Position numbers and translations under genes: made by a program. Below the pieces are notes generated by a model that worked only from the letters and a program-made list of their open reading frames with translations, did not search any database and was not told the DNA's origin. From an uncultured Clostridia bacterium (GTDB lineage: Bacteria > Acidobacteriota > Aminicenantia > UBA2199), in the NCBI GenBank assembly GCA_964502145.1, contig CAZCVI010000002.1, positions 117,383-181,382 of the forward strand: a stretch of 64,000 nt of DNA. The letters run 5' to 3'. Shown here one piece after another: positions 2-56,000 of the stretch; position 1 is the first letter of the stretch; each line of letters opens with the position of its first letter.

Positions 2-277
2 TTAAAACAACTGGAGAAGGCAGCAGCCGATAAAGACTTACTGCGCCAATTAGAGTTAGAGGAAATGGCCTATCGAGAATATGACAGTACAATCGGCATG
101 TTGGAGAGAAAGTTAGGCGAAAAAGAGCAAGCCTTAAACGAAAAAAATCAAGCCTTAAACGAAAAAGAGCAGGCTTTGAACGAAAAAGATCAGGAGCTCA
201 ACGAAAATAAACGTATGATTGAAGAGAAAAATCAATACATTGCAGAACTCTTAAAAAAGCTGGAAAAAGAAAAATAG
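2..277 (+). CDS. 3' fragment of an Rpn/YhgA-like (TIGR01784-type) putative transposase/nuclease paralog; the 5' end lies outside the window; the C-terminal coiled-coil tail carries extra 21-nt (heptad) repeats
   Basis: The frame is open from position 2. Nucleotides 1-140 are nearly identical to 1113-1250, the 3' end of the 388..1326 CDS. The translated tail is LKQLEKAAADKDLLRQLELEEMAYREYDSTIGMLERKLGEKEQ followed by repeated ALNEKxQ units. Confidence 0.5.
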   Translation, partial: LKQLEKAAADKDLLRQLELEEMAYREYDSTIGMLERKLGEKEQALNEKNQALNEKEQALNEKDQELNENKRMIEEKNQYIAELLKKLEKEK

Positions 278-8997: not shown

Positions 8998-9233
8998 TCT
9001 TCTTTTTGCACTATTTTCAACTGTGCCTGATAAAGCCCTTTATCCATTACCGAGGGATTCGTTTGATCTTCATACAATGCATTTAACTGCTGTGTTACAT
9101 TTTCCTCTTTTTTATCCTTCAGATACTCTTCTATTGCCCTCGCATAAAATTCACTGCGAGTTACCTTTAATTGGTGGGCGATTTTCTCGGCCAATGCAAA
9201 TATATTATCCGGTATGTATACTGCTGTTTTCAT
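8991..9233 (-). CDS. Cognate antitoxin of the MazF-like toxin (MazE/RHH-like, 80 aa)
   Basis: Small ORF immediately upstream of, and overlapping, the MazF-like gene. The sequence itself is only weakly diagnostic. Confidence 0.55.
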   Translation of the reverse strand: MKTAVYIPDNIFALAEKIAHQLKVTRSEFYARAIEEYLKDKKEENVTQQLNALYEDQTNPSVMDKGLYQAQLKIVQKEEW

Positions 9234-9536
9234 GCTTAAAGTATAATCCCAATAGAGGCGAATGTCAAATAAAAAACTTCCCCACGTACCGATGGAAATT
9301 AAGAGGTTAGTTGCGCCAAACTAAGCCCAGGAATTTGGGACATGTCAGTGATTCTCATTATTCTCGTTATTCTTTTTCCTCCCATTCTTCGCATTTTGTC
9401 CTAGGGATTTCCAAACTTTTGGTGGTTGTTCCAGGTGAAACTACAAAACTTGCAGATAAAAGTTGCGTATATTATAGTGCTGATTCTAATGCCTAGTATA
9501 ATATATACTTTTAAAAACGAAATGGAGGTTATAAAT

Positions 9537-13923: not shown

Positions 13924-13950
13924 CTCCTCTAAAGAGCTGAAAAAACTACC

Positions 13951-16215: not shown

Positions 16216-16322
16216 ATAAGGATCGTAGATCATGTTGTGTACTATTTTCAACGTATTATCCAATAACTTTGGCGTAACACATAAGAAAAATAAAATATAA
16301 ACCAAACAAAGGAGATTTAGCC

Positions 16323-16820
16323 ATGAAAGAGAAAAATTTTACGATTACCGAAAACACGAAACCGCAGGATGTAAAAAAAATCAGGGACATTTATACCAAT
16401 TACCTGAGAGTCATGCTCAAGTGTGCTGAAGACCAAGCTTATTTTGTAGAATTTCAGAAGAACACCCGTGATATCCTGGTCAATGAAGTAGGGATGACCA
16501 TCCCGGAAGGAGTCCCAATTGTTCTTGATGACAATGTAAGATGGGCATCACTGGTCTTAAATGCAAAAGGTGCCGATGGTAGCAATTATGTGGTAAAAGA
16601 AATGGAACTGGGTATCAAAGCCTATGAAACTTGGGCTGATGGAGAACTTGAAGCGTCTATTACCCAACTTACCCATGAAGCCTGCGTTGAAGTTGATATT
16701 AAAGCCGAATTCAAGAATTTTACACCAGCAATTCGTATCCCATTTATTGATGTAACCAAGGATTTACTGGGTGAAATTAGCTTTAATAAGAAGACTGAAA
16801 TCGTTTTAACTTGTTGCTAG
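16323..16820 (+). CDS. NHLP-type (nitrile hydratase alpha-like leader) RiPP precursor peptide, 165 aa, C-terminal ...IVLTCC
   Basis: Leader block TRDILVNEVGMTIPEGVPIVLDDNVRWASLVL matches the NHLP consensus. There is no CSLCSC metal site, so it is not a true nitrile hydratase. GGAG nine nt upstream of the start. Immediately downstream of rSAM and YcaO. Confidence 0.6.
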   Translation: MKEKNFTITENTKPQDVKKIRDIYTNYLRVMLKCAEDQAYFVEFQKNTRDILVNEVGMTIPEGVPIVLDDNVRWASLVLNAKGADGSNYVVKEMELGIKAYETWADGELEASITQLTHEACVEVDIKAEFKNFTPAIRIPFIDVTKDLLGEISFNKKTEIVLTCC

Positions 16821-16970: not shown

Positions 16971-17036
16971 ATACTTATTTTCGTGTACTTATTTTCGTGT
17001 ACTTATTTTGTTGTATTTATTAGTGTATTTTTCTGT
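16971..17036. repeat. About 5 tandem copies of a 12-14-nt unit (GTAYTTATTTTCGT) directly upstream of the signalling-protein gene
   Basis: Read directly: tacttattttcgt gtacttattttcgt gtacttattttgtt gtatttattagt gtatttttctgt. Confidence 0.6.
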
Positions 17037-27813: not shown

Positions 27814-29202
27814 TTGATAAATAATTTTAATGAAGGATATGACATGCCTGAAACAAATAATGAACCAAGATTCACGTGCGATTGGATTTTTAATATACTG
27901 GTGGTCTTAAGCGACGGGAAAGTGGTGTGCGGGTGCGCGGACCCTTATGGTCAGAGACCTCTGGGCCATTTACAGGAAAAGGGAATCTACGAGATTTGGA
28001 ATTCTGAGCCAGTGAAACAAATCCGCCGGGATTTGAACGCGGGACATGCCGATTTCTGCGGTCCCTGCGGTTTGAAACGGTTCCTCAAAGAAAACGAAAC
28101 GCTACCACAAGCACCGGAACACCTGGACGTATTACCCCGACTATTTTTGGAACCGACGGTGTTATGCAACCTGAACTGCTTCAAAGCGGTGTGCAGCAAA
28201 GAAGCGGATATCTTAAAATCGCGCACACGGACTATTTTTCCGGTTGAAGAATTTAAAAGTCTTTTAGATCAAGTGTGGGAGAAACTGATCCGCTTGGATT
28301 TTTTTAACTACGGCGACCCTTTTGTTCATCCACAAGCGGCGGAAATGATGGCTTATATTAAAGAAAAATACAGGCATATCTATCTGTATGTGAGTACGAA
28401 CGGATTGATGCTGGATGAAGAGAAAATAAAAATTCTGGCGGCTTCGGGGGTGGATGAGATTACATTTTCGGTGGATGGGGTAGATCAGGAATCGTATGGT
28501 CACTACCGACAGGGCGGGGATTTTAATAAAGTGCTGGGGCTGATGGCCAAAATGGTAGCGGAGCGAAATAAAATAGGTCGCGAAGTGCCTTTTATTAACT
28601 GGCGTTATATTCTGTTTAATTGGAACGATTCCGTTGCGCAGATGAAACGGGCGAAAAAACTGGCGGCCAAAATCGGCGTCGATCGTTTTACCTGGGAAAT
28701 CACGGATCACCCAGTAGAAGGGAAATCGGAAAAATACCAGATCGGCACGGAGGCATGGAAAAAGATATATTATGAAATCTGGGATACGAGCCAAATTGGC
28801 AACGTGGTGAAAAAGAATCGTTTCATGGCAAAAATAAAGGTCTTGTCTGGACGGGTGGATATGGCGGTTGGGGGTGACGCTGTGAATGTCCGGGTGCAAG
28901 TGAAAAACAAGGGGGGCGCACTGTGGCGGAAAGTAACGTGGTCGGGTCGTAGACTGGTTCGCCTGGGCGCACAATGGTATGACAGGGATAAAAAACTGCT
29001 GGACCTGAATTATGCACGGGTGTTTTTAAATAAAGACTTGGGTTATCGGAAAAAAGATATCTTAACGATCACGTTACCGCCATTATCGCAACCTGGGGAG
29101 TATTTTCTGAAGTTTGATATGGTTTCGGAGGGCAATGATTGGTTTGAAAACGGGGGCTCGCCAGTGGTGTGGGTGCCGTTTAGGGTTTATGCGGGGGGGT
29201 AA
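27814..29202 (+). CDS. Cys-rich Fe-S / radical-SAM-like protein (non-canonical CNLNCFKAVC plus N-terminal CGC...CGPCG cluster)
   Basis: TIM-barrel-like pattern (LYVSTNGLML, DEITFSVDG) after the Cys motifs. Assignment is tentative. Confidence 0.45.
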   Translation: MINNFNEGYDMPETNNEPRFTCDWIFNILVVLSDGKVVCGCADPYGQRPLGHLQEKGIYEIWNSEPVKQIRRDLNAGHADFCGPCGLKRFLKENETLPQAPEHLDVLPRLFLEPTVLCNLNCFKAVCSKEADILKSRTRTIFPVEEFKSLLDQVWEKLIRLDFFNYGDPFVHPQAAEMMAYIKEKYRHIYLYVSTNGLMLDEEKIKILAASGVDEITFSVDGVDQESYGHYRQGGDFNKVLGLMAKMVAERNKIGREVPFINWRYILFNWNDSVAQMKRAKKLAAKIGVDRFTWEITDHPVEGKSEKYQIGTEAWKKIYYEIWDTSQIGNVVKKNRFMAKIKVLSGRVDMAVGGDAVNVRVQVKNKGGALWRKVTWSGRRLVRLGAQWYDRDKKLLDLNYARVFLNKDLGYRKKDILTITLPPLSQPGEYFLKFDMVSEGNDWFENGGSPVVWVPFRVYAGG

Positions 29203-29203
29203 T

Positions 29204-29257
29204 GGGAGGAATGGGAAGTATGGGAATTATGGGAGTTATGGGAAGAATGGGATATTT
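29204..29257 (+). repeat. Six tandem 9-bp repeats (taatgggag gaatgggaa gtatgggaa ttatgggag ttatgggaa gaatgggat) directly after the stop of the upstream gene
   Basis: Read directly. The reverse complement of the unit is the same nonamer found inside the NRPS A domains. Confidence 0.85.
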
Positions 29258-29356
29258 AGAACTATTTCTGAAAACACTGAATTTTATTAAAATAAGCTTG
29301 TAAGATTTTTAAATATTTTATATGATATCAGGGTAAATAATGAATTGGAGGTTGTT

Positions 29357-30152: not shown

Positions 30153-30224
30153 AGCGGGCAACGGGGCTCGAACCCGTAGCATCCAGCTTGGGAAGCTGAT
30201 ACTCTACCATTGAGTTATGCCCGC
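30153..30224 (-). tRNA. tRNA-Gly (anticodon CCC)
   Basis: The reverse complement folds as a cloverleaf with a 7-bp acceptor stem GCGGGCA/TGCCCGC, D-arm AGTGGTAGAG-like, anticodon stem TCAGC/GCTGG, loop TTCCCAA and T-arm GGTTCGAGCCC. No encoded CCA. Confidence 0.85.
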
Positions 30225-31307: not shown

Positions 31308-31352
31308 ATGTGGACGATATGGACAGTATGGACGATATGGACGATGGGGATG
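31308..31352 (+). repeat. About five tandem 9-bp repeats of the variant unit ATGGACGAT / ATGGACAGT
   Basis: Read directly. Related to the ATGGGA nonamer at 29204 and, in reverse complement, to GTCCAYATC repeats at 37781-37812. Confidence 0.8.
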
Positions 31353-37381: not shown

Positions 37382-37430
37382 CTTAAGTGGTGAAAATATG
37401 TTTCGTCCGTTGGGTTTTTGTAATTATTTA

Positions 37431-37510
37431 TAGAACTGTCTATCTTTTTGTAGAATTATCTATCTTTTTGTAGAATTTTCCTGTTTTTCGTAGAATTTTT
37501 TGGTTTTAGA
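37431..37510 (+). repeat. Four tandem 20-bp imperfect direct repeats (TAGAAYTRTCTATCTTTTTG)
   Basis: tagaactgtctatctttttg / tagaattatctatctttttg / tagaattttcctgtttttcg / tagaattttttggttttaga. Confidence 0.8.
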
Positions 37511-37540
37511 GACAAATTTCTAATTTCAGTTACAATTTTT

Positions 37541-37690
37541 TAATAATTTTTAAAAAATTGCGGTTACAGGGACAATTTTTTAAAAATTCCTTGAAAATTG
37601 TAGTGGTGCGGAGAAAATTGTAGCCATGGGGACTTTTTTTTAAATATTTTTGAAAACATGCACCTACAGGTCCAATTTTGTAGGCAGGGA
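37541..37690 (+). promoter_or_regulatory. AT-rich iteron-like array (recurring ACAATTTTTTAAAAA and AAAATTGTAG motifs) upstream of the NRPS operon
   Basis: Multiple short direct and inverted repeats read directly. The region lies between divergent genes. Confidence 0.4.
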
Positions 37691-37780
37691 GTTTGTAGGC
37701 AGTGTTTACATATTTGGATGGCTATTGTAGATGCGACATCTTGTCGCATTGATAAAGGCATAAAGCAAAATAGATACGGT

Positions 37781-37812
37781 CCACTTAGTCCATATCGTCC
37801 ACATCGTCCACA
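37781..37812 (-). repeat. About four tandem 9-bp repeats GTCCAYWTM (reverse complement GATRTGGAC), related to the 31308 array
   Basis: gtccactta gtccatatc gtccacatc gtccacaac. Confidence 0.7.
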
Positions 37813-38070: not shown

Positions 38071-41000
38071 ATGAGTCAATTAGAAAGAAAGAAAATTGCG
38101 GATATTCTGATGTTAACGCATTTGCAAGAAGGGATTCTATTTCACTATCTGCAAGAACCCAAAAGCGCGCAGTATTTTGAACAATTAAGCCTGGAAATCT
38201 CGGGGGAGATCAATCTGGAACTATTCAAAACCGCATGGCATACGGTCATCCAAACCAATGAGATGCTGCGCACTGTATTCCGCTGGGAAAAAATGGAGAA
38301 ACCAACCCAGATTATCTTAAAAGAACATACCTGCGACATCACTTTTTACGACCTGACAGATGAAGCGACAAACAGGCAAAAATCCCGGCTGCAAGAGATT
38401 AAAGACAAGGATAAACAAACACCCTTTGACTTGCAAGAAGTGCCCATGCGAATTATGTTGTGCAAGCTAGGGACACACGATTATGAAATGATCATCAGCA
38501 ACCACCATATCATCTATGATGGCTGGAGCAACGGGATCATTCTGAAGGAATTCTTCAGGGCATACTATGGGCTAAGCGCGGGAAAACCTGCGCTCCTCCC
38601 GGACAAACCCTCTTTCAAAGAATTTATCAAATGGCTTCAAAACGAGGATAAATACGAAAAGGATAAACAAAAAGCGTTTTGGCGCGATTATCTAGCAGGT
38701 TTAGACGGTCAGACGGAATTACCGCTAAAAAACATAAAAAATAGAAAAAACACTGGCTCCAAGCAGGTAGAACACTATTCACTGGTTCTTGAACCGGAGT
38801 TAAAAGAGAGGTTGGAGGCGTTTGCCAAAACCAAGCGGTTCACTTTGGCCGGGGTGTTCTACACTGTCTGGGGGTTATTGCTACACCAGTATTGCAACAG
38901 CCAGGATGTTCTGTTTGGCACAACTGTAGCCGGTCGTTCCGCACGGATAAAAGGCATAGAAGAGATGGTGGGGCTGTTTATCAATACGATTCCATTACGA
39001 ATCCAAACGACTCCTGGTGAAAAAATGGTGGCGGTGGTCAGCGGCGTGGATCACGCGTTACAGGCCCGTGAACTTTTTGAGAATACACCGTTGTTGGATA
39101 TCAGAAATTACAGTGGCTTGTCTGGTTATGTATCGCTGTTTGATACGTTGGTAGTGATTGAGAATTATCCATTGGATAGTCGTTTACTGCCCGAAGAAAG
39201 CGGGTTGTCAGTTCATGCTTTTACTATTGCTGAAATGACCCATTATGATTTAACCGTGGGCATTGTGCTTTTTAATGAGATAGCCGTCACGTTTTCCTAT
39301 AACCCGGAATTATTCGCCCAGGAAATGATTGCCCATTTGGCCGGGCATTTTTTGTCTCTGGTACAGATGATTATAGAAAACGGCGAACAGGACATTTGCG
39401 CCATAGAAATAATCTCCCCTGAAGAAAAGCACCGCGTATTATATGAATTTAATAATACCGCCGCAGAATACCCATCAAACAAAACGATTCCCCAATTATT
39501 CATGGAACAATCCGCCCGGACCCCAGACTACATCGCCCTTATCTGGGAAAAAAGCGGGGCGTGCCATATATCCTATGCCGAATTAAATGAACTATCCAAC
39601 CGTCTGGCCTATTGGTTGCAAACAGAAGGCATTAGGCCCGATACTATCGTGGCTATAATGGTAAATCGTTCCATTGAAATGATTGTGGGCCTCATGGGTA
39701 TTTTAAAAGCCGGTGCCGCCTATTTACCGATTAACCCGGAATACCCGGCTGAACGAATTCAATTTATGCTGCAAGACAGCACCGCAAAAATCGTGCTCAC
39801 CGAACCAATCATCCAAGCAACCACTTCCCATATTCCCATTCCTCCCATAATTCCCATAATTCCCATTCCTCCCATAACTCCCAGTAATTTAGCCTATGTA
39901 ATATACACTTCCGGCACCACCGGCAAACCCAAAGGCGTTTTAGTAGAACATCAAAATGCCGTTAATGTGGTGTGCTGGTTAGGGCGAAAATATCAATTAA
40001 ACCCCGATACCCATATTATCTTGATGTCCGATTATACCTTTGATGCCAGTATTGATCAAATCTTCGGTGCCTTGTTGCATGGTGCCTCTCTTTATATCGC
40101 CAGTAAAGAGTTCATGTTGGATATGGATGCTTTACGCCATTACATCAATAAAAATCGGATCAATTTTATTAATTTTGTGCCGCTAGTGCTCAATGAATTG
40201 CTGGGCTATCGGGAGAAATTGCCCAGCTTAAACACCGTGATTTCCGGTGCAGAGCGGTTGGACGATACTATCAAAGATAATATCCTGAAGCGCGGCTATC
40301 ATTTATATAATCATTATGGTCCCACAGAAACCACGGTGGAGACACTGGTCTTCACTTGTACAGACGCTCCAGTTTACCTGGGGAAACCCATAGCCAATAC
40401 AAAAATTTATATACTTGATCAATGGGAACATATCGTTCCAATCGGCGTACCTGGAGAATTGTATATTGCCGGGGCCGGATTGGCCAGGGGGTATTTGAAC
40501 CGGTCCGATTTAACGGCGGAGAAATTCGTGGCCACACCCCATGGTGTAGAGAATGACCCTGTATCTCGAACCTATCGAACCGGGGACCTGGGGTGTTGGC
40601 TGCCCGATGGAAATATTGCGTTTCTGGGACGCATTGATCAGCAGGTTAAGATCCGGGGGTTCCGTGTTGAACTGGGAGAAATCGAAGCACAATTGCGCAC
40701 TTTCCCGGAAATAAAGCAGGTCGTGGTGAGCGCAAAAGAAGATAACCGTGGTGATAAAACGCTTTGTGCCTATATTGTATCCCGGCAGCTTTCTACAGGC
40801 CCCACTGCCCCCCTTGACCCAGCCGTGCTAACCACCTATTTAGCCGGTATCTTACCCGATTACATGATTCCCGCCTATTATGTCCAGTTGGCAGAAATTC
40901 CCCTGTTGCCCAATGGCAAAGTGGACCGCAAGAACTTGCCTGAGCCTGTTTTTATTGCCACCCAAGCATACCAGGAACCACGGCATGAACTGGATCGCAG

Positions 41001-44000
41001 ATTGCAAACGATATGGACGAGCGTTTTATTTGGAAACGTGCTTTCAGAAGATTCATCCGCACCACCACCTAAACCCATCGGGATTGATGATAATTTCTTT
41101 CATATGGGCGGACACTCCCTGAAGATCATGAATATGGCAGCTAAAATTCACAAGGAGTTGAACCTGGAAATACCAGTGCAAGAACTATTCACCCATCCCA
41201 CTATCCGGGTTTTGGCCAATTATATAAACACGCGGGAACACACTAAAAATATCACTAAAAATAACTTTGCAGAGATCGCCGCTATTGAAGTAAAAGAATA
41301 CTATCCACTCTCTTCGGCCCAGAAAAGAGTTTATATTTTATACCTCATGGAAACCGATAGCATCAATTACAACATGCACGAGGTATTCCGCCTGGAAGGG
41401 GAACTGGACGTGGGCCGCTTGGAAAAAAGCTTTACCCAATTGATTCGCAGACACGAAAGCTTAAGAACTTCCTTTTTCTTACTCCATGATGAACCGGTCC
41501 AGAAGATTGTGGCCGCCAGTGATGTACCATTCGCCAGCGAATTTTTTGATCCAAACGAAAAAGACACCCTGGTCGAACCTGCCCTAAACGACACCGCGTT
41601 AATGGAAAATACCACTGTTTATGACATCAACCAGCGTTTTTTAAGACCCTTTGATTTGACTCAAGCGCCCCTGTTCCGCGTCGGGCTTATTAAAATCGCC
41701 AAGAACAGCCATATCTTGATGGCAGGAATGCACCATATTATTTCCGATGGCATATCAATTGACCTATTTATCACTGATTTTGTCGCCCTCTACCGTGGCC
41801 AGAACTTACCCCCCTTGCCCATTCAATACAAAGAGTATGCCCACTGGCAGCACCAGAAAAAAGCGCAGGGCGCCTTTAATAGCCAACGCTCCTACTGGTT
41901 GCATGAATTTGCCGGTGAGCTTCCCGTATTAACCATGCCCTATGATTTCCCCAGGCCAGCCGTGCAGAGTTTTGCCGGCGACAAATATTATTTTAACCTC
42001 CCCGCATACGAAACCAAAACGTTAATAAAACGGTGCCAGGAAGAAGCGGTGACTCTTTTTATGATGCTCAGCGCTATCTATTATGTGATGCTGTGGAAAC
42101 TGAGCGGTGCCGAAGAGATCGTGGTGGGAAGCCCCACGGCTGGACGCAGACACGCTGATCTGGAATCCATTTTAGGAATGTTTGTCAACACCCTGGCAGT
42201 AAAAACCAGCCCTGCCAAGGAAACACGCTTCAAACCCTTTTTGGCACAAGTCAAACAAAAGAACCTGGCAGCTTTTGAAAACCAGGAGTACCAATTTGAT
42301 GATCTGGTGGAGGAACTATTACCCGCACGGGATTTAGGTCGCAACCCGTTATTCGACATGATGTTCATCTTGCAAAATATGACCGGCACAACTAACACGG
42401 CGATAAATATTCCGGGCTTAAAAATAACCCGCCTTCCTTTTGAAACGCATATCGCGCCTTTTGATTTTTACCTCATGGCTGAAGAACGACAGGAGTCTAT
42501 CTATTTTACCGTGGGTTATTGCACCAAATTGTTTACGCTGGAAACCGTGCGTCGGTTCATGGGGTATTACCGAGAAATTCTGGCCACAGTGGTCACCCAA
42601 CCCGAGGTGGAACTGGCACGTATAGACATATTATCCCCGGCAGAGAAACGCCAATTAGTGCAGGAATTTAATAATACCCAACGACCGTACCCACAGGGTC
42701 AAACCATTCCGCAATGGTTTGCAGAGCAGGCCGCACGAACCCCAGAAGCCATTGCCGTGGTAGGGGAGGGGGTCATCACCTATCGGGAATTAAATCAACG
42801 GGCCAATCAATTGGCCCACCTGTTGCGACAAAAAGGAGTGGCCCCAGATACCATTGTTGCCCTCTTTATGTTTCGTTCTATCCAGATGGTTGTTGGTATC
42901 CTCGGCATATTAAAAGCGGGCGGCGCTTATTTGCCGATCAACCCCGTGTATCCTGGGCAACGTGTGTTGTCTATCCTGGAAGATAGCGGTGGCAATTATT
43001 TTATAAGCGATGAAAAAACATCCCGCCCTCTTTCTTTTACCGGTTTACAGCGTTTGGATGTGCCCGAAGTGACGCCCCTGGTTACAGCCAAACGACCCCA
43101 GATCACAAATTTTGATAGCTTGCCCCATCCCGATCGTACATTGATTGATTACAGCAAATATCATCGTTATATTGGTATTGCACCCGCCAAATACACCGTC
43201 AGTATCCAGGCCACTCGCGGCTGCCCGTATCAATGTGCCTACTGCCATAAAATATGGCCCAAAACACATGTCATGCGGCGGGCTGAAGATATATTCGCCG
43301 AGATTAGCGCCTGCTATCAGGCGGGGGTGAAACGATTTGTATTTATCGACGATGTCTTCAACCTCAATAAAAAGAACAGCGGCCAATTATTTCAAACCCT
43401 GATCGACCACCACTATGATGTGCAGCTCTTTTTTCCCAACGGGTTACGCGGCGATATCCTGACCCCCGATTTTATTGACCTCATGATTGAAGCAGGCACT
43501 GTTAATATTGATCTGGCCCTGGAAACGGCCTCGCCCCGCTTGCAGAAACTGATCAATAAACAATTGAACCTGGAAAAATTCGCGGCCAACGTCCATTATA
43601 TCACCCAGAAACATCCCCATGTCGTGTTGGAGATGGAGATGATGATTGGCTTTCCCACGGAAACGGAAGCGGAAGCTTTACAAACCCTGGAATTATTGCA
43701 GAGTTTTAAATGGGTCCATTTCCCCAACCTGAATATCCTCAAAATTTATCCCAATACTGACATGGCCCAACTGGCAATTGAAAACGGGGTCAGTCGTAAA
43801 TTGATTCATTCCTCCACCACCCTTGCATTCCATGAGTTGCCAGAAACACTCCCTTTTTCAAAAGATTTTGTCCGGGAGTATCAGGCACGCTTTACCAACC
43901 AGTATTTTCTTTCCCAGGAACGGTTGCGCCATGTATTAAAACAGCAGGTCAAGAGCTTCACCGCCGATGAGCTCGTGCAAAAGTACGACAGTTATTTACC

Positions 44001-47000
44001 CGTGGAGATCAAGTCTTTTGCCGATATTCTCAAGTGTGCTGACATCTCCAGCGCTGCATTGGGGCCCATTGAATTTATTCCCGAAGCCCGCTTTGCCGCT
44101 CCCGATTTTAACCAGCGGATCAAGGCTTTTTTCCCCTCCCGCCCCAGCTCGGAAAATGCTTTTCGTCTCTTGTTTCTTGACCTGTCGCAATCCTTTCGCG
44201 CCGATATGGGCCATACCCTTTACGATGTCGGAGCCGAACCCTTGGGGTTGATGTATCTCGCCTCCTATCTCCAAGAACAACTCGGCCCACACGTTCGGGT
44301 CAAAGTGTTGAAGTCGCGCATTGATTTTGATAGTTATGCCCAATTGCAAGAACAGATCACGTTGTTCCAGCCCCATTTAATTGGTCTGCGCACCCTATCC
44401 TTGTACAAGGATTTTTTTCATCGCACTGTTTCCCTGTTGCGGCAATGGGGCATTACCGCGCCTATTATTGCTGGTGGACCCTATGCCACCAGCGATTACA
44501 AACAAATGCTCCAGGACCCACACATCCATCTCGCCGTGCTGGGAGAAGGAGAAGCCACTACCCTCCATCTGGTTAAAGAGATGATGACCAAAAACAATAC
44601 CTGGCCCGCCGACGACGTATTGGAAACCATTCCCGGTCTCGCCTTTATTCGCCAATCAGAGCGAATGTTAACCACCGCCCCCCAGCGGCAGGTGCTCTTG
44701 TTGGACCAGATTTCTGGTCCATTGGCCCACTTTCCCACCACCAATCCCCAGAACGTCAATCACCCCGGTGATTTGCTATATTTGATCTCCACTTCCGGGT
44801 CTACCGGGAAACCCAAGAGCGTGATGGTCGAGCATCGCACCCTGGTTAATTTGCTGCATTTTCAATTCCATCATACAGCCATCCATTTTTCCCGTGTCTT
44901 GCAATTTGCCGCCATCGGGTTTGATGTCTCCGTGCAAGAGATTTTTTCTGCCTTACTCGCCGGTGGCACTTTATATCTTCCTGACGAAGATATGAAAAGC
45001 GATGTGCCCCGGTTGTTCCAGTTTATCCAGCAGAACCAGATCGAAATTCTGTTTCTGCCTCCTGCATTTTTGAATTTTGTTTTTTCTGACCCCGACTATA
45101 TCCCATTATTTCCCGACTGTGTGCGCCATATTATAGCTGCTGGCGAACAATTGATCGTGAACGAGGCGTTACGATTGTTCCTGAAGCAGCGGCACGTGTA
45201 TCTCCATAATCATTATGGCCCCTCTGAGACCCATGTTGTCACCACCTTGACCATGGATCCCACCCAGGAAATCCCCCATTTCCCCGGTATTGGCAGCCCC
45301 GTATCCAACACCGGCATTTATATCTTGGATAGCCAAAGCAATCTTTTGCCCCTGGGTGTTAGCGGCGAATTAAACATTGGCGGTATCCAGGTCGGGCGTG
45401 GTTATTTGGGTAATGTGGCGTTGACTGCCGAGAAGTTTGTGCCGAATCCCTTTGTCCCCGGTGATCGCTTGTATCGCACCGGTGATATGGCCCGATGGTG
45501 GTCAAATGGGAGTATTCAGTTCTTGGGACGCTTGGATTTCCAGATCAAAATCAGGGGTTTTCGTATTGAACCCGGTGAAATCGAGGGACAATTAAAAAAA
45601 CACCCGGATATTAAAGAAACAATTGTCCTGGCTCTGGCAGATAATAAGGGCGAGCTCTATCTGGTGGCTTATGTAGTGTTACAGCCGCAGACTACCATGC
45701 CCCTCTTACGGGAATTTTTATTGAACCGATTGCCGGATTATATGGTTCCCGCCCATTTTATCCCTCTGGCACGAATTCCCTTGAACGCCAGCGGGAAAGT
45801 CGACCGTCATGCGTTACCACCACCGGAAAATACACCGGGAAACGGGCATGTAGCACCACGGGACCCCATGGAAAAAAAATTGGCCGCTATCTGGTGTACC
45901 GTGTTGGGGAAAGATGTTGCCCAAGATACAGTCAGTATTGATGATAATTTTTTTCAAATGGGTGGGCACTCCTTAAAAGCCACCGCCCTCACCTCCAGGC
46001 TAGCCAAAGAGTTTCATGTTAAAGTGCCCCTCGTGGAGATTTTTAAAGAGCCCACCATCCGGGGCCTTTCCGGTTATATTGCCCATTCTATGGTGGAGCA
46101 ATACGCTGGCATAACTCCTGTAGAAGAGCAGGAATACTACCCCTTATCGTCAGCGCAGAAACGATTGCACTTTTTACAACAAATGGATAAAGCGGGAACC
46201 ACCTATCATCTGACTAGTAACTGGCTGTTGGAAGGTGTTGTCGCTAAAAACCACCTGGAACAATCGCTGCTAAAACTGCTACAACGCCATGAGAGTTTAC
46301 GCACTTCCTTTGATATCATAGCCGAAGAACCCGTGCAAATCATCCACCCGAAATTAGCATTTGTTATTGAAGATGAACATGCTACCATGGATTCTTTCCT
46401 GCGTCCATTTGCATTATCACATGCCCCGTTGCTGCGCGTCGGATTGGTAAAAATAGCAGCCGAAAAGTTTCTCTTACTCGTGGATATGCATCATATTATT
46501 TCCGATGGGTTGTCCATGGATATTCTGAGCCGTGAATTCACCGCTCTTTTGGCAGGCGTAGAACTCCCCCCATTACGTCTCCAATACAAGGATTATGCCG
46601 CGTGGCAGAGTTCTGAAAAAGAGAGCCCCCACTTCCGTCAACAAGAATTATTTTGGCAGCAAGAGTTTAGCGGCGCCATACCCGTGCTCGATTTGCCCGT
46701 TGATTATAGCAGACCACCCGTTCAAAGTTTCGCCGGGGCATCACTTCCTTTTGCCCTATCTCGTGATAGCGTTGTTTCCTTGCAAGCCATAGCAGTAGAA
46801 GCCAGTGCCACAATGTACATGGTGCTGCTCACATGTTATACTATCTTTTTAGCTAAAATGAGCAACCAGGAAGATATTGTCATTGGCACACCCATTGCCG
46901 GTCGCAGGCATGCAGACCTGGAGAAAATTATCGGGATGTTTGTCAACACATTGGTGTTGCGGAACTATCCGGTAGCGGAGAAAAAATTCAGCGATTTCCT

Positions 47001-50000
47001 GGCTGAGGTCAAAGAGAGAACATTAAAAGCATTTGAAAACCAGGAGTACCCGTATGAAGATTTGGTAGACAAAGTCACGATCACCCGTGACGTCTGTCGC
47101 AATCCCTTATTTGATACCATGTTTGTATTGCAAAATGCCACCCCACCACCCGTGGACATTCCCGGCTTAAAAATAGCGCCCGTGCCGCAGGAAAACAAAA
47201 CCGCCAAATTTGATCTGACTCTAACAGCAGTGGAAACCCCGGAAAAAATAGAATTGAACTTCGAGTACTGTACTAAATTATTTAAAAAGGAATCCATCCA
47301 CCGGTTTATCACCTATTTTACCAATATCATCGACTCCGTTCTGGCAGACCCCTTCATTGTCTTGGGTCAGATTCCCCTGCTCTCCCCAGCACAACGAGAG
47401 CAACTGCTGGTGGAGATCAACGCACCCGCCATCCGCTATCCTAATTTCAAGACCATTCAGGGTTTATTCGCCGAGCAGGTCAAAAAAACGCCGGATCGGC
47501 CAGCACTAACCGGTATCAGGTATGATCAAGCAGAAACTCACCTGACTTACCGGCAATTGGACCAGCTTTCCCGACAGTTGGCCCACCAGTTAACGGGTAG
47601 GGGATTGGGTCCTAACAAGCGAGCAGCCATAATGGTAGGCCGAAACGTGGAAATGATTATTGCCATTCTTGGAATTATTCAGGCCGGGGCCGCGTATGTT
47701 CCCTTGGACCCCCAGGCCCCTGTCGAACGATTGCACTATGTATTGGCTGATTGTGGCGCAGAATTATTATTAACCTTCCGCCCATTGGCTGCACGATTGG
47801 CTCCCGCCATAGATACACTTTACCTGGAAGAGTTTACCACCCTCCCTGCCACCCCTCCCGATGCCGTTCTCTCCGGTCATCCTGATGATCTCGCCTATAT
47901 TATATATACATCCGGCTCAACCGGTAGGCCCAAAGGTGTTCCTATTTGCCACCGCAATGTATCGCCCTTATTGTTTTGGGGGTATCGGTACTTAGGGATT
48001 TGTCGTCTAGATCGTGTTATCCAGAGTCCCTCCTATTATTTCGACTGGTCTGTCTGGGAGATATTTATTACCCTTACCAGCGGGGCCCATTTGGTAATGA
48101 TTAGCGAGGAGCTTGTACTTGATCCCCCGGCGTTGGTGGAATTTATCCGGCAGCACGCCATTACCACCCTGCACATCACCCCCACCCAGTTAAGTTATCT
48201 CGTGAATAGCAGACGCCCTATGCTCTCGTTGCACCATCTCTGTATTGGCGCCGAGAAATTAACCTATGATCTTGTAGCCCGTGCTCTTCCCCTGCTTGCA
48301 ACCGATTGCCGGATTTACAATATGTACGGTCCCACCGAAGCCACCATCATTTCCGCTGTGGCCGAGATTGACCGTGAGCAAATTCCGTTCTATCTCAAAC
48401 TGCCCAGTATCCCTATTGGTCACACCATCGCCAATACCACCCTGTTCGTATTGGATCATTCTATGAACCCCTGTCCCATCCATGTTGTTGGTGAACTGTA
48501 CATTGCCGGGGATGCCTTGGCCCGTGGTTATCTCAATGATCCAGAAAAGACCGTAGCCAGTTTCGTCACCAATCCCTTTGCCGAGATTTGCGGTCCCTAC
48601 CTCTACAAAACCGGTGATCGCGTTCGTCGCCTGGAGGATGGCAGCATTCTCTTTTTAGGTCGCGCCGATGATCAGGTAAAAATACGCGGCTATCGCATCG
48701 AGTTGGGGGAAATTGAGAACTGGCTGCTACACTATCCACACGTCAAAGATGCTCTCGTGCTGGTCAAAGCGGATCATCTACAGGAGAAATATTTATGTGC
48801 CTATGTGGCGTGTCCCATTGAATTGGATACCGCCGAATTAAGGGATTTCCTCGCCGCCAGACTTCCCGCCTATATGATCCCCGCCCATTTTATCACGCTT
48901 GAACATATGCCCCTCAACCCCAATGGCAAAGTCGATAAAAAACGCCTGCCCCTCCCTGAAATGCAAACAAGCCCACAAGTCGTCGCCCCCAAAAACGATC
49001 TGGAAAAAACCATCCTCTCTATCTGGCAAGACGTACTTGGACTCGACCACGTAGGCACCACGGATAATTATTTTGAACGGGGTGGCAATTCCATGAATAT
49101 CGTTAAAGTCAGTCACCGTTTAAAAAGTGTATTGAACCGCGATATCCCCGTGATGGACCTGTTCCGTTACCCCACCATCAAAACCCTGGCCGCTTACCTC
49201 AACCAGAGCCCCGGCCATGTCCCTTTCACCCCGTCGGAGATAGGGGAGTCCCTCCTACTTAATCAACCCGAAATACCCCGACATGAGAGTGTTTCTACCA
49301 CTCCCGCGATTGCCGTGATTGGTATGGCCGGAAGGTTGCCCGGTGCGAACACTATTTCCGCATTCTGGAACAATCTCAAGCATGGTGTCGAATCCATTGC
49401 TTTTTTCTCCCCCGCAGAATTCGCAGACAACGGGGGTGATCCCCGGTCCGTGAACCTGCCCAATTATGTTAAAACCCGCTGTGACTTGCAAGATATCCAG
49501 TATTTTGACAGTTCATTTTTTGGGTACACCCCCGTGGAAGCCGAAATAATAGACCCCCAGATGCGCCTATTTCATGAATGTGTCTGGGAAGCTTTTGAAG
49601 ATGCCGGTTATGAGTCCGGTTCTTATGCCGGTCGTATCGGGCTTTATTCCGGTGGGGAATCCAGTTCTTTCTGGGAAACATTAACCTCTTTATCCCAGAT
49701 TGGTCAGTTGATGAATCCCTTGATTCTGGGCAATTTAAATAATAAAGATTACCTCAGTTCCCGTATTGCCTATAAATTTAATTTACGCGGGCCATCCGTC
49801 ACCATGAACACCGCTTGTTCCACCTCACTTGTCGCCATTCATTTTGCTGTTCAGGGTTTGCTCAACCGCGAGTGTGAGATCGCCCTGGCCGGTGGCGTGC
49901 GGGTCATGCTGCCCGGAAAAACCGGCTATCTCTATCAAGAGGGTATGATTCAATCCCCAGATGGTCATTGCCGTGCCTTTGATGCCAGGGCCAATGGCAC

Positions 50001-53000
50001 CGTGGGTGGCGATGGCGTCGGTGTTGTAGTCTTAAAAACTCTGGCACGGGCCCAGGTGGATGGCGATCATATTTATGCTGTCATCAAAGGTTCTGCCATT
50101 AATAATGATGGTATTGGCAAAGTAGGTTACCATGCCCCCAGCATCAATGGTCAGGCTGCCGCCATTCGCGCCGCGTGTGCCAATGCTGCCATTGATCCCG
50201 GTAGTATCGGTTATATTGAAACCCATGGGACCGGCACCCAGTTGGGGGACACCGTGGAGATAGAGGCATTAAAACTCGTTTTTAACGCCCTCGTCTTGCC
50301 CCAGCATAAAAATACCTGCGCTATCGGGTCAGTCAAAACCAATTTTGGTCACCTGGGCAGTGCCGCCGGGGTGGCTGGATTCATTAAGACCGTATTGACC
50401 TTAAAACACCGCCTCATTCCACCCAGCTTGCACTTTGAACGCCCCAACCCGAAGATTGATTTTGAAAACAGCCCCTTTTACGTCAACACCCAATTAACCC
50501 CGTGGCCCTCCACCCTTCTTCCCGCGCGGGCCAGTGTCAGTTCCTTTGGCATAGGCGGCACCAACGCCCATATTATTTTGGAAGCCGTGGCCCCTACCAG
50601 CCCCGCATTCCCCGCCAGCGCCCGTCCCGATCAATTGCTATTATTATCCGCCCGCACCCCCGCTGCCCTGCACACCATGTCCGTCAATCTGCTGGAGTAT
50701 TTAAAAGAAAACCCGGTGCTTTCCCTGGCCGATGTGGCCTACACCTTGCAAGTGGGCAGAAAGCGTATGGCAATCAGGAGAAAGCTGGTATGTTCCACTT
50801 CCGCCCAGGTGATTGACCAGCTTGCTGCTTCCGGGCCCGCCCATGTCGGCGCTTACACCGCCTTGGTCGCCGATGAAGATAGGAAAGTTATATTTATGTT
50901 CCCTGGTCTTGGTGCGCAGCACGTTAATATGGGGCGCGGGCTTTATCACACCGAACCCATCTTCCGCGATGTGATGGACCGTTGTTTTGCTATATTAAAA
51001 GACCTGTACCCCGTGGACATAAAAGAAATTCTGTACCCTGCCGGGGAAATCTCGCCGGCATCAAACAGCCAATTCCACTCCTTTGAAGTCGAGCAACTCG
51101 TGTTGTTTGTGTTTGAATATGCCTTGGCCAGACTCATTTTGTCGTGGGGCATTCAGCCCCATGCCATGATCGGTTACAGTTTTGGCGAGTATGTGGCCGC
51201 CTGTTTAGCCGGGGTGTTTCGCTTGCAGGATATCTTAAAGTTGCTGGTCGTCCGTGGGCGGCTCATTTCCCAGCTTCCCGCCGGTGCCATGTTAAGTGTT
51301 CCCCTGCCAGTGGAAGCCGTGCAGCCTTTTCTTCCCGCCGAATTATCCATCGCCATAGACAACCGTTCCTCCTGCGTAGTTTCCGGGCCCGCCCAGGCCG
51401 TGGCTTCCTTTGCTCAGCAGATGAAAGCCAAGAAGCTCTTGTGTCCGCCCTTTGAATCCCCCTTTGCCGCGCATTCGTCGCAGTTGGACCCCATATTGGC
51501 GGAGTTTCACAAGGAAGTCGCTACAATTTCCCTCCAGACCCCGCAAATACCCTATATTTCAACCTGTACTGGCACATGGATCACTGTTGCCGACGCGCAG
51601 TCCCCAGAGTATTGGGTCAAACAACTCAGGTCCACCGTTTATTTTGTCCGCGGTATTCATCAGATTATAGAAGGGGTCTCCCCGGTATTTCTAGAAATGG
51701 GCCCCGGACGCGACATGAGTGCCCTGGTGAACCGTGAGATCACCGCTAAAACCGGCATACAGACCATGAACCTCCTCCGTCATCGCGGTTCCTTAAAAGA
51801 GCGCACCGATGAAGATTACTTGCTGGATAAAATCGGTCGCTTATGGTTGTATGGCGTGAATATAGACTGGCAAGCCTATCATTCCGGCCAGAGACGAAGT
51901 CGTCTCTCATTGCCTACCTATCCCTTTGAGAAAAAGCGGGCCTGGAAAATTATGGAAAATTATCACGCCGGTCAATATTCCTATCTACCCGGCGCCCCCG
52001 GTGCGCCAGAGAGTTCGCACCCGGCCCAAGGAACACCTCTGGCAGAAACACCGGGTGATCATTGGACACAAGAGCCCCCCCATCTCGAATGGAATGCTAG
52101 GCCGCAACTTTCCACCTCATATGTCGCTCCCCGCGATGAGGTGCAACAAGTCCTGCTTGATATCTGGCAGCATTTTTTTGGTATTCAAGAGATCGGTATC
52201 ACCGATGATTTTTTTGAATTGGGTGGCGATTCATTAAAAGCCACCACCCTGTTATCCACCCTGCACAAGGAAGCCAATATACTCGTCCCCCTCACTTATT
52301 TCTTCGATAATCCTACCATTGAAAAAATCGCCGCTTATGCCATAACCAGTGAAAATGACGCAGACCCAGGCGAAAAAGAGTTCCATGCCATCCAACTTTT
52401 GGAACAGAAAGAGTATTACCCCCTCTCTTCCGCGCAAAAGCGCATGACCTTTTTTCAGCAGTTGGACCAGACCAGTATCGGATACAACCTGGTGCTGGCA
52501 AACACCATCCAGGGCAATCTGGATACCCTAAAACTGGCCGCCATATTCACCAAACTAAGCGCACGGCACGAGATTTTGCGTACCTCTATTGAAGAGATAC
52601 AGGGTGAAACCGTCCAAAGAATTCATCCACATATTGCTGCCACACTGATCACCGGTCATGGAGAGTCCCCCGAAGTATTTATCGCCCAGTTCATCCGTCC
52701 CTTTGATTTAGCCCGTGCCCCCCTCATGCGGGTCGGGTTGTTGTCTATGGCCGAGCAGCAGTATTTATTAATCGTCGACATGCATCATATCATCTCTGAT
52801 GGCACGTCATTGGCCGTATTGATCGGAGAGTTTTTGGCTCTGTATCAGGAAAAAGAGTTGCCTGTTCTGTTGTTGCAGTATAAAGATTACGCTGTCTGGC
52901 AGAACCAGGAAATGGCCGGTGGGTTGTTTGTTTCGCAGCGGGATTACTGGATAAAGACATTTGCCGGTGAAGTTCCCGTGCTTGAATTGCCTTATGATTG

Positions 53001-56000
53001 TATCAGGCCGTTGGATCGCACCTATGCTGGCGATCTGTTGGCCTTTGAAATTGATCGTGCAGAGACTTCGGCGTTAAATCATTTCGCCAGTCAGCAGGGG
53101 GTCACATTGTACATGGTGTTGCTCTGCTTAACCACTATCCTTTTAGCCAAGTTAAGTGGTCAGGAAACCGTGGTCGTAGGAACTCCCATTGCCGGTCGTA
53201 CCCATGCGGACCTGGGCCGGATTATCGGCATGTTTGTCAATACCCTGGCCATGAAGAATGAACCCAATGGCCAAAAAACTATCCAGGAATTTTTAAAGGA
53301 AGTCAAAGAAAACACCTTGAGTGCTTTTGCCAACCAGAACTACCAGTATGAAGAACTGGTCGAGCACCTGCCCATAGATCGCAGTCTAGGCCATAACCCC
53401 TTGTTTGACACCCTGTTGGTCTTGCAAAACATGGCTCTGCCCAATATCAATATTCCCGAATTGACCTTAACACCCTATCCGTATCATACCGGTTTGGTAA
53501 ATTTTGATTTGACTTTCCTGTGTGTTGAAACCCCAGCTACCCTCTCGTTCACCCTTGAATACAGTACAGAACTCTTTAAAAAAGAAACCGCCCAACGCTT
53601 TATCGGTTTTTTCAAAAAGATATTAACCACCGTATTGGCGCACCCCGAAGGAAAAATATCCCAGATCGAGATAATATCCCAGCCAGAAAAAACCCAGATT
53701 TTATATGATTTCAACAACACCACCGTTACATACCCGGCCAACCAAACCCTTCCCCAATTATTTTCCGACCAAGCCGCACGAACCCCAGACCATATCGCCA
53801 TTATTGGTCCCACCCTGGCTCTAACCCACTGCCAATTAACCTACTCCCAATTAAACGAAGCATCCAATCGCCTCGCCCATTGGTTACTTTCCACTGGCGT
53901 CCGTCCCAATACCATCGTCGCCATCATGATCGAACGTTCCATTGAATTGATCATCGGCATTATCGGCATATTAGAATCCGGTGCCGCCTATCTTCCCATC
54001 GATCCCCAATACCCCGAGGAGCGAAAACAATATATACTAGCAGACAGCAATACAACCCTCATCCTAACCCAACACTCCATCCAACAAGCCATTCCCATCA
54101 CTCCCATCACTCCCAACACTCCCATAATTCCCATACTTCCCATCACTCCCATAAATCTCGCCTATATCATCTACACTTCCGGTTCCACCGGCAGACCCAA
54201 GGGCGTCATGGTAGACCATCACAGCATCGCCAACACCTTGTATTACCGCTGCCAGGAATATCGTATCGTGCCCAGTGATCGTGTACTCCAATTGTTTTCC
54301 TTTGCTTTTGATGGATTTCTCACCTCTTGTTTTACCCCCCTGCTTTCTGGCGCATCTGTCGTGCAGTTAAGCCAGGAGGACATAAAAGATATCTTCCGTA
54401 TCAAAGAGATGATTGTCGCCCAACGAATCACCCACTTTATCGCTGTCCCGTCCCTGTACCGCTCTTTATTGGAAGTCGCCACTGCCCTTGAGTTATCCCA
54501 CCTAAAAATCGTAACCCTTGCCGGTGAGCAGGTGCCCCCCGACCTCGTGGTAAAAAGTAAGTCTTTAAACCCCTTGTTGGAATTGGTCAATGAGTACGGT
54601 CCCACCGAGAGCAGTGTCCTGACCTCCATACACAGAAACCTCGAACCCGGTGCCATTATTTCCATCGGTAAACCCATAGCCAATACCCGGATTTATATTC
54701 TTGATCAAGATGATCATGTTGCCCCCATCGGGTTACCCGGTCAACTCGTTATATCTGGTCTTGGTTTGGCCCGCGGGTATCTCAATAATCCCCAACTCAC
54801 CGCCGCTACATTTTTCTCTTTAGCCCATTCAGCCACCTTCGCCACCCTCTCACCAAAACTCTATAAGAGCGGTGATTTGGCCCGCTGGTTGCCAGATGGA
54901 AACATAGAGTTCCTCGGTCGCATTGATCAGCAGGTTAAAATCCGTGGCTTCCGTATTGAATTGGGCGAGATCGAAAACCAACTGCTTCGCCATCCCCAGA
55001 TCAAAGAGGCAGTAGTGGATGTTAGAACCGAAAACAGCGGCGATCACTATTTATGCGCTTATATTGTCACCCAGGGCGAATGGGACATCTCCCAGGCAAG
55101 AGAATATCTGGCCAAGACCTTACCCGATTACATGATTCCCGCGCATTTTGTCGCCTTGGAGAAAATCCCCTTGTCCCCCACTGGCAAGATTCTACGTTCA
55201 GCCTTACCCCAACCGCAATTAAAAAGCGCGGCCCAGTACGTGCCCCCCCGCAATGACATAGAACAACAATTGGTAGAGATATGGACCGAGATTTTGGGCA
55301 GTGATCCATTGTTTGCCTCTTTTTTACATCCCTCTATAGGCATTGATGATAACTTTTTCCATCTCGGTGGGCACTCCTTAAAAGCCATGACCATGGTCAC
55401 CAAGCTCCATAAAGCCCTAAATGTTAAAGTGCCCTTGGTGGAAGTCTTTAAAACCTTGACCATCAGGAAACTGGCCGCCTATATTTTAGGTTTAAAAAAA
55501 GAGTTATACACCGCCATCCAACCCGCTGAAACCAGAGAGTATTATGACTTATCCTCTGCCCAGCGCCGGTTTTATATCTTGCAGCAAATGGAGCTGGACA
55601 GTTTTGCCTACAACAATTTTTCCGTCATGGTTTTGGACGGATTATTTGATAAAGAGAAATTTGGCCACGCGTTAAACCAATTGATCGCCAGACATGACAG
55701 TTTAAGAACCTCTTTTGAATTAATCGGAGGTGAACCTTTCCAAAAGATACATCAACAAGTAGTCGCGGAAATCGCTTATTTTGATTTCACCCCTCCCGGA
55801 AAAAGTCAGCTCTTAGAATCCACCATCCAACATTTTAACCGTCCTTTTGATTTATCTCATGCCCCCTTGCTCAGGTTCGGCATTATTCTCGTGGAGCAGC
55901 AAAAATCCTTGTTGCTGTTAAGCCTCCACCATATCATCAGTGACGGCACATCCATCGGCACCTTTATGAACGAGTTAATTTATTTATACCTGGGCCGAGA

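Follow-up and report, generated by a model that had tools for sequence, protein, structure and literature searches.

In-frame 9-bp tandem repeats fill the a2-a3 slot of two adenylation domains in a hybrid peptide synthetase, probably as near-neutral expansions

What is a short tandem DNA repeat doing inside the catalytic domain of a large biosynthetic enzyme? We analysed a 64-kb stretch of contig CAZCVI010000002.1 from an uncultured bacterium (the window), which carries a gene for a hybrid of nonribosomal peptide synthetase (NRPS) and polyketide synthase (PKS) with the domain order C-A1-T-C-A2(rSAM+B12)-T-C-A3-T-KS-AT-ACP-C-A4-T-C, where rSAM denotes radical S-adenosylmethionine. Between core motifs a2 and a3 of its first adenylation (A) domain, A1, lies an array of 9-bp units built on the hexamer TCCCAT. 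In our view, a simple-sequence repeat specific to this genome has probably expanded here, in frame and near-neutrally, within a permissive slot of the domain. Coordinates of the array and of the features that bear on it are collected in Table 1.

The units of the A1 array read ACTTCCCAT ATTCCCATT CCTCCCATA ATTCCCATA ATTCCCATT CCTCCCATA ACTCCCAGT and are translated, in the frame of the NRPS-PKS gene, as TSH IPI PPI IPI IPI PPI TPS. Tandem Repeats Finder placed the repeat at 39826-39883 with a period of 9 bp (6.6 copies, 78% matches) and reported a higher-order period of 27 bp (2.4 copies, 92% matches), the latter pointing to a recent duplication of a three-unit block. In the register of the core, the first unit is one base short, at 8 bp (TCCCATAT followed by TCCCAT). 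The array is beyond chance. Across the whole window, three successive TCCCA-N4 units were matched 13 times against 0.01 expected, and a survey that assumed no particular unit found five arrays, every one of period 9, against none in 20 shuffles. The window survey found no arrays at periods of 6-8 or 10-12 bp. Sequence, translation and repeat finder all bear out an earlier sequence-only reading of this DNA, which had described seven tandem nonamers between the two motifs. That reading had also remarked that a 9-bp unit keeps the frame, and the 18.8-kb open reading frame (ORF) does stay open across the array, because the length of the unit is divisible by three and no stop codon occurs on this strand in that frame.

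A further array, additional to those which the earlier reading had listed, occupies the same slot of the fourth A domain, A4. It belongs to the same family, is read in the same x-P-I frame and has the same number of units, and the distance from a2 to a3 is identical in A1 and A4. The two domains are old paralogues, with a protein identity of 46-58%. The a2-a3 slot is normally hypervariable, yet the two arrays were more alike than the rest of the domain, with DNA identity of 74.6% over the array columns (71% at third positions) compared with 57.5% (43.8%) elsewhere.

Table 1. Positions in the 64-kb window of the arrays, their host gene and the borders of the slots they occupy.
Feature	Position	Strand	Description
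A1 array	39823..39885	+	Seven in-frame 9-bp units, each of a TCCCAT core and 3 variable bases; peptide TSHIPIPPIIPIIPIPPITPS
A4 array	54091..54153	+	Seven units of the TCCCAT family, frame x-P-I, a2-a3 slot of the fourth A domain, peptide IPITPITPNTPIIPILPITPI
Host gene, NRPS-PKS	38071..56889	+	Intact ORF of 6272 aa
Core motif A2 (a2) of domain A1, LKAGAAYLPIN	39703..39735	+	Left slot border
Core motif A3 (a3) of domain A1, LAYVIYTSGTTGKPKG	39889..39936	+	Right slot border; the array ends one codon upstream
a2-a3 slot of domain A2 with radical-SAM and B12-binding insert	42943..44790	+	Same slot as the A1 and A4 arrays
Intergenic TCCCAT array	29201..29257	- (C-rich strand)	Six TCCCAT units; starts at the TAA stop of rSAM/SPASM ORF 27814..29202
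Predicted 33-aa ORF, MGGMGSMGIMGVMGRMGYLELFLKTLNFIKISL	29202..29303	+	Mostly intergenic array; its ATG overlaps the rSAM/SPASM stop (TAATG)
Second 9-bp family (RTATGGACG, 4 units)	31309..31345	+	Intergenic, 14 nt past the stop of a methyltransferase gene
Second 9-bp family (GTCCACATC-type)	37779..37812	-	Intergenic, about 260 nt upstream of the NRPS start

We asked whether these arrays are repeats of DNA or repeats of a peptide, and the sequence points to an origin at the DNA level for both. Threonine was encoded by ACT in 6/6 array codons, compared with 15% in the rest of the gene (P about 1e-5), which was the sole clear deviation. Isoleucine was encoded by ATA in 6/16 codons (17% gene-wide) and proline by CCC in 13/15 (59% gene-wide); the proline bias was given no weight as an argument, because the enrichment is only mild. 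Among the 149 a2-a3 segments taken from the closest homologues of A1 and A4 in the database, none contained a run of three or more x-P-[IVLM] triplets, and the last 25 aa of the segment held at most five prolines, compared with eight in A1. The best relatives of the two domains in protein and metagenome searches were only about 47-57% identical; all protein homologues retrieved were shorter than 1000 aa, and the query's own 6259-aa protein was not among them. A conserved functional linker, as the sequence-only reading had pointed out, should appear in distant taxa as the same proline-rich peptide written in other codons. Since 0/149 homologous segments carry an x-P-I run, we found no such codon-independent conservation.

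The A1 array appears to have overwritten the native a2-a3 segment and not simply to have been added to it, because the slot is short and the array columns stand in place of native structure. The a2-a3 segment of A1 measures 51 aa, compared with a homologue median of 62-63 aa (range 41-124), and in the alignment the array takes up columns that usually belong to the end of a helix, to a conserved 'xIxLD' strand and to a loop, and it leaves a net gap. The earlier proposal that the repeat had invaded coding sequence thus holds for its DNA-level origin but not as a net insertion. An AlphaFold model of the A1 domain, built on 72 sequences, had a mean predicted local distance difference test score (pLDDT) of 89.7 and a predicted template modelling score of 0.86, and it matched 1AMU, 6P1J, 5ES8 and 5T3D (E about 1e-54). 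In this model the array forms a coil, flanked by helix 139-146 and strand 168-174, and pLDDT is <50 at residues 149-155. A low-scoring coil exactly over the array agrees with the flexible Pro/Ile-rich loop that had been suggested, and supports a tolerated flexible loop. Pfam AMP-binding and AMP-binding_C both matched A1, and with all core motifs from a1 to a10 readable and a predicted ANL fold (acyl/aryl-CoA synthetase, NRPS adenylation domain, luciferase) it has the features of a canonical NRPS adenylation domain. The domain most likely still works, because its catalytic core is untouched.

The same slot holds something quite different in the neighbouring module. There, domain A2 carries an insert of ~580 aa between a2 and a3 (slot at about aa 1625-2240 of the NRPS), so that the A1 array and the neighbouring rSAM insert do share a slot, as had been noticed. 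A2 is accordingly an interrupted A domain with an embedded catalytic domain. This does not apply to A1 and A4, whose slots are below normal length and contain nothing catalytic. The A3 domain has an ordinary a2-a3 segment. No repeat remnants were found at the borders of the rSAM insert in A2. The insert runs from a Radical_SAM core (aa 1713-1876) to a B12-binding domain (aa 2056-2166), the usual order being B12 then rSAM, and its best NCBIfam matches were B12-rSAM enzymes of the BchE, ApyD, PhpK and KedN5 types, all far below cut-offs. A 2020 catalogue of interrupted A domains lists methyltransferase inserts only and nowhere mentions radical SAM.

The repeat also lies outside the synthetase. 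Read as its reverse complement, the intergenic TCCCAT array contains the exact units TCCCATAAT, TCCCATAAC and TCCCATTCC in common with A1, and it has exact units in common with both coding arrays. The C-rich strand of all three arrays holds 0-1 G. Exact blocks reached 26 nt between the intergenic array and A4 and 17 nt between A1 and A4; we did not use the 26-nt block as proof of direct copying, as with about eight spacer variants such a match is roughly estimated to be not rare. A second 9-bp family (GTCCA-type; RTRTGGACG / GTCCAGTAA) is present in both orientations. Its third array lies 10 kb left of the window (L134:7-39), within the closing codons of a gene predicted to encode 55 aa (…ACPVSPVCPDSPACHGYPW). 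The portion of the genome that we read, ~74 kb (the window and 10 kb leftward), therefore holds three TCCCAT arrays, on both strands and all within the 64 kb, and three arrays of the second family. Both units recur at several loci, and four of the six arrays stand between genes or at the end of one (29201, 31309, 37779 and L134:7-39). These counts sustain the view of the sequence-only reading that the nonamer belongs to a short tandem repeat family, in coding and intergenic DNA and on both strands; its absence from other sites would have spoken against that view, and it is present both in A4 and at 29201-29257. The non-coding array that had been reported at 29204-29257 exists and shares exact units, but it starts at a stop codon and overlaps a predicted ORF. 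The spread would have run from intergenic into coding DNA.

That 33-aa ORF is among the called genes of two assemblies, and it matched no family. Were the rSAM/SPASM gene read through its TAA stop, the array would be translated in that frame to WEEWEVWELWELWEEWDI. We considered the intergenic array as the precursor of a ribosomally synthesized and post-translationally modified peptide (RiPP) that the adjacent rSAM/SPASM enzyme would mature, and rejected it: the ORF lacks a family match and the enzyme matched only generic maturase models, far below cut-offs. No known RNA family, promoter or terminator was found at the intergenic array.

We then compared the slot in related synthetases, the nearest metagenome relatives of the A1 module being ~47% identical. 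Other repeats fill the same positions. In one module of locus L120, an 8-mer (AGAAGGTG) and a 7-mer (ATTCATC) form arrays between a2 and a3, and the corresponding slot of the following module contains two 8-mer arrays; the a6-a7 slots of L120 hold the 7-mers TTCATCA and ACCACTC, and more arrays stand before a1 and in a C-domain loop, all within one 2041-aa ORF. In L123 and L124, an array of the 8-mer CTTACCYT (LPSYPLTFLPSYL) lies in a 46-aa slot. Three further loci, L139, L140 and L141, were chosen for an odd-looking slot. The a2-a3 slot of L139 carries 9-mers as an inverted pair, TGAGTAAGG (1461-1483) and TCACCTTAC (1546-1587), that of L140 an 8-mer array, and L141 has 7-mer arrays in a2-a3 and a 9-mer in a6-a7. 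In addition, HHSSFIIHHSS appears in 10/149 of the homologous segments; (TTCATCA)n gives this text when translated through its three frames. Taking together the window, L120 and L123, none of which was chosen for an odd slot, a2-a3 slots hold 5/9 of the arrays within NRPS ORFs at 3.9% of the coding length (P about 1e-5); when the whole rSAM insert is counted as slot, P is about 8e-4.

Because relatives hold different units in the same slot, filling it with repeats appears to be a habit of the lineage, and the unit to be specific to the genome. The earlier reading had called the a2-a3 loop a permissive hot spot for insertions in this synthetase. The slot does recur, in A1, in the A2 insert and in A4, but it is not peculiar to this synthetase.

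Some further observations on the relatives stand beside this. The inverted pair of L139 resembles adjacent inverted array pairs between genes of other genomes. Arrays of 7 or 8 bp, which are not multiples of three, lie inside intact related NRPS ORFs (L120 3611-8004; L123 3855-3892; L140 545-582; L141 1485-2584), and slippage by one unit there would shift the frame. The synthetase of L139-L141 is split into several called genes.

Judged by nearby housekeeping genes, the host lineage is Aminicenantes-like: its S46 peptidase has 64-66% identity to those of 'Candidatus Aminicenantes'. A cyanobacterial origin, with short tandemly repeated repetitive (STRR) sequences or HIP1, was rejected on the same peptidase and on the lack of any GCGATCGC site. 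Synteny of the S46 peptidase led to two related contigs, L136 and L137, neither of which carries an NRPS. On L136, an Aminicenantes contig, several different 7-10-bp arrays fill the spacer between a methyltransferase and an APS-kinase gene (9190-9420), the first of them at the stop codon; at the same spacer, the window has a 9-mer array.

We also searched the genomes of species representatives for four TCCCAT units spaced at 9 bp and found at least 113 loci in many phyla. None of the matches listed lies in an A domain; they form a mixed set, from (GGM)n chaperonin-like tails and coding linkers to arrays between genes. When viral contigs were scanned as a control, there were 118 stretches for TCCCAT, 21 for the permuted core CTCACT and at least 120 for the permuted core CATCCT. 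As permuted cores also match, it is common for an arbitrary hexamer to occur in 9-bp arrays, many of which are three-residue coding repeats of the ordinary kind. The idea of a single cross-phylum TCCCAT family was therefore dropped, and with control cores this abundant we draw no conclusion on a shared cross-phylum element. Among the matches listed (L007-L119), arrays often lie few nucleotides or codons from a start codon (L043, L068, L072, L117, L119) or from a stop codon; adjacent inverted pairs occur in L012, L019, L027, L054 and L070, and other arrays stand at contig ends. The same 800 kb of L007-L119 contains frequent period-7 arrays (52), for which it had not been selected, and periods 6, 8 and 10-12 are rare.

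How might such an array come to sit in an enzyme? On the reading that we prefer, the A1 array would be one locus of a lineage-specific 9-bp family, a TCCCAT core with three free bases, that grows at the DNA level by slippage or unequal exchange; the 27-bp, three-unit duplication in A1 would be a recent step of this growth that is still visible. In two adenylation domains the repeat would have overwritten a poorly constrained, putatively surface-exposed segment between a2 and a3. It would there be translated as (x-Pro-Ile)7, an unstructured proline-rich connector that joins the short helix following 'KIVLTE', itself a strand, to the strand leading into the P-loop (a3). The repeat itself would have no dedicated function and would persist because the a2-a3 slot tolerates almost any sequence, a tolerance by which whole catalytic domains can be embedded there too. 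Slippage as the mechanism, and the neutrality of the array, are inferred.

The likeness of A1 and A4 could have another source. The array may be kept as a recombination substrate, a ~60-bp tract shared by two domains 14 kb apart that would serve gene conversion or the deletion and duplication of modules, in which case conversion between the domains, not independent colonisation, made the two alike. Unit number, frame and slot length are equal in A1 and A4, DNA and third-position identity are raised in the arrays, the left flanks are alike (…ATCCAAGCAAC / …ATCCAACAAGC), and in the N-terminal part the two domains are each other's closest pair. However, internal repetition inflates identity whenever two arrays belong to the same family, and the intergenic array, by its exact block, is as near to A4 as A1 is. 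The flanks show no sharp step in identity and no recombinant junction was seen among three assemblies, and we regard this explanation as unlikely. It is similarly improbable that the array acts as a nucleic acid, be it a G-quadruplex, an i-motif or a protein-binding site that modulates replication, transcription or the speed of translation. A quadruplex motif is present, with GGGA-N3-AT repeated six to seven times on the antisense strand; this G-rich strand fits G3-N6-G3-N6-G3-N6-G3, and an energy model that allows for quadruplexes predicts three-layer structures, with -15.3 vs -6.1 kcal/mol for the intergenic array. The core is conserved with a variable spacer, intergenic arrays lie at gene ends, and a role as regulator sites has been proposed, in other bacteria, for short direct repeats located at the starts of genes (PMC4679880). 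Yet the orientation of the arrays relative to genes is not constant, the G-rich strand of the NRPS gene is the template and the corresponding mRNA stretch is predicted to be unstructured. The units in the slots of relatives (TTCATCA, CTTACCYT, AACCAACA) have no runs of G, and neither an Rfam match nor a terminator-like site was found.

Selection might instead act on the peptide, the DNA repeat being a mere building route to (x-P-I)7 as a polyproline-II spacer, a docking surface or, at the two Pro-Pro sites, a pause dependent on elongation factor P. The ORF is intact, two domains share a periodic peptide of the same length, and A1 has two PP dipeptides; A4, however, has none. No homologue among the 149 carries such a peptide, and the slots of relatives contain unrelated texts (HHSSFIIHHSS, LPSYPLTFLPSYL, NQQTNKLTNQTTN). 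With codon use indicating repeat DNA, the same DNA lying outside genes on the opposite strand, and the segment predicted as low-confidence coil, we find a selected linker very unlikely. An artefact of assembly or sequencing might also be considered, as tandem repeats often cause misassembly and related arrays stand at contig ends in other genomes. We can give it hardly any credence here: the 63-bp array is below read length, it is identical in three assemblies (ENA ERZ27262927, ENA ERZ27262925 and JGI 3300020048), and the 18.8-kb ORF is kept open.

Several points count against a near-neutral expansion. The equal number of units (seven) and the equal a2-a3 spacing in A1 and A4 may reflect a length constraint or gene conversion instead of free drift. 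No variation in copy number was seen: the three assemblies, which may share reads, are identical at both the A1 and the intergenic array. The census of arrays has ~74 kb of genome as its basis. Finally, the TCCCAT core is kept in 19/21 units beside a variable 3-base spacer, and selection on the core would look alike. A more ambitious reading, which we hold to be unlikely, is that the a2-a3 and a6-a7 repeats of Aminicenantes-type NRPS are an evolvability device: tracts almost alike between modules, as in A1 and A4, would provide recombination points for the loss, gain or swapping of modules and landing pads for domains such as the rSAM/B12 unit of A2, and the 7- and 8-bp units in the ORFs of relatives would be on-off switches operated by slippage.

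Other features of the window lie around these subjects. A PKS gene begins three bases past the NRPS-PKS stop codon. The 800-bp region upstream of the NRPS start contains 20-bp direct repeats, TTTGTAGAATTTTCTATCTT, in ~3.7 copies followed by degenerate ones (37427-37560). Further tandem repeats have units of 21/42 bp at the start of the window (118-207) and of 14 bp upstream of a 1758-aa kinase gene (3.6 copies, 16972-17021). A tRNA gene at 30153-30224 (minus strand) was the sole Rfam match in the window. A RiPP-like gene set lies at 12079-16820. Its rSAM C-methyltransferase scored 437 bits against TIGR03975, above the cut-off, and the set also includes a fused TOMM leader-binding/YcaO cyclodehydratase and an ORF of 165 aa with …VLTCC at its end.

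In one uncultured lineage, then, genome-specific repeats of 7-9 bp appear to have repeatedly overwritten a2-a3 and, in relatives, also a6-a7. For NRPS engineering this amounts to an unplanned mutagenesis screen, a natural map of A-domain sites that accept foreign sequence. This recurrence supports the view that the usual helix, strand and loop of the a2-a3 slot are dispensable for folding, and 21 aa of x-P-I are a candidate for its minimal replacement. The arrays also document a wealth of unit-specific short tandem repeats in Aminicenantes-like genomes, a feature that we did not find in the literature searched, where tandem repeats of A-domain loops or of Aminicenantes were likewise not the subject of any paper that we found. 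Arrays of this kind may break assemblies and mislead gene callers, as with the 33-aa 'gene' called on the array here.

How do the arrays compare with known systems? In-frame coding minisatellites (variable-number tandem repeats) form linkers or exposed stalks of secreted bacterial proteins and are usually variable between strains. The likeness is that a 9-bp unit gives a proline-rich three-residue repeat and keeps the frame, as in a TPI/TPT linker in L086 (TTPIAPTTPITPTTPIVPITPIVPITP); the A1 array differs in lying inside a cytoplasmic catalytic domain and in that no variation was seen in three assemblies. Contingency (phase-variable) repeats are likewise short tandem repeats within an ORF. 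A 9-bp unit, however, cannot shift the frame with each unit gained or lost, and only the 7- and 8-bp arrays of relatives (L120, L123, L140, L141) could do so.

The nearest parallel to the repeat itself is the long simple sequence repeats of prokaryotes, with units of 5-11 nt, such as the heptameric STRR of cyanobacteria and the TAACTGA repeats of Beggiatoaceae (large sulfur bacteria), Cyanobacteria and Bacteroidetes (PMC4679880). In that paper's summary of Mrazek et al. 2007, these repeats lie mainly between genes, and inside genes there is a preference for unit lengths divisible by three. The A1 array is a head-to-tail repeat with a unit in this size range, and the ~74 kb agree in having one lineage-specific short unit at several loci, mostly intergenic or at gene borders, with no evident mobility and with multiple-of-three units in genes. 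Unlike those systems, the 9-bp unit here combines a fixed 6-bp core with a free 3-bp spacer and occurs in an Aminicenantes-like lineage, two copies sit at homologous positions inside a conserved enzyme domain, and relatives carry 7- and 8-bp units in intact NRPS ORFs. The parallel to the slot is the interrupted A domain, in which a2-a3, a6-a7 and a8-a9 are known sites of interruption by a methyltransferase domain (A2-M-A3, A6-M-A7 and A8-M-A9; PMC8341866). Foreign sequence in a2-a3, the repeats of relatives in a6-a7 and the rSAM/B12 unit in the slot of A2 fit this pattern; the slots of A1 and A4 differ, as they hold a filler of repeat DNA that has no fold and is shorter than the normal segment. 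Thus, the A1 and A4 arrays are a natural marker of tolerated sites and not a new kind of system.

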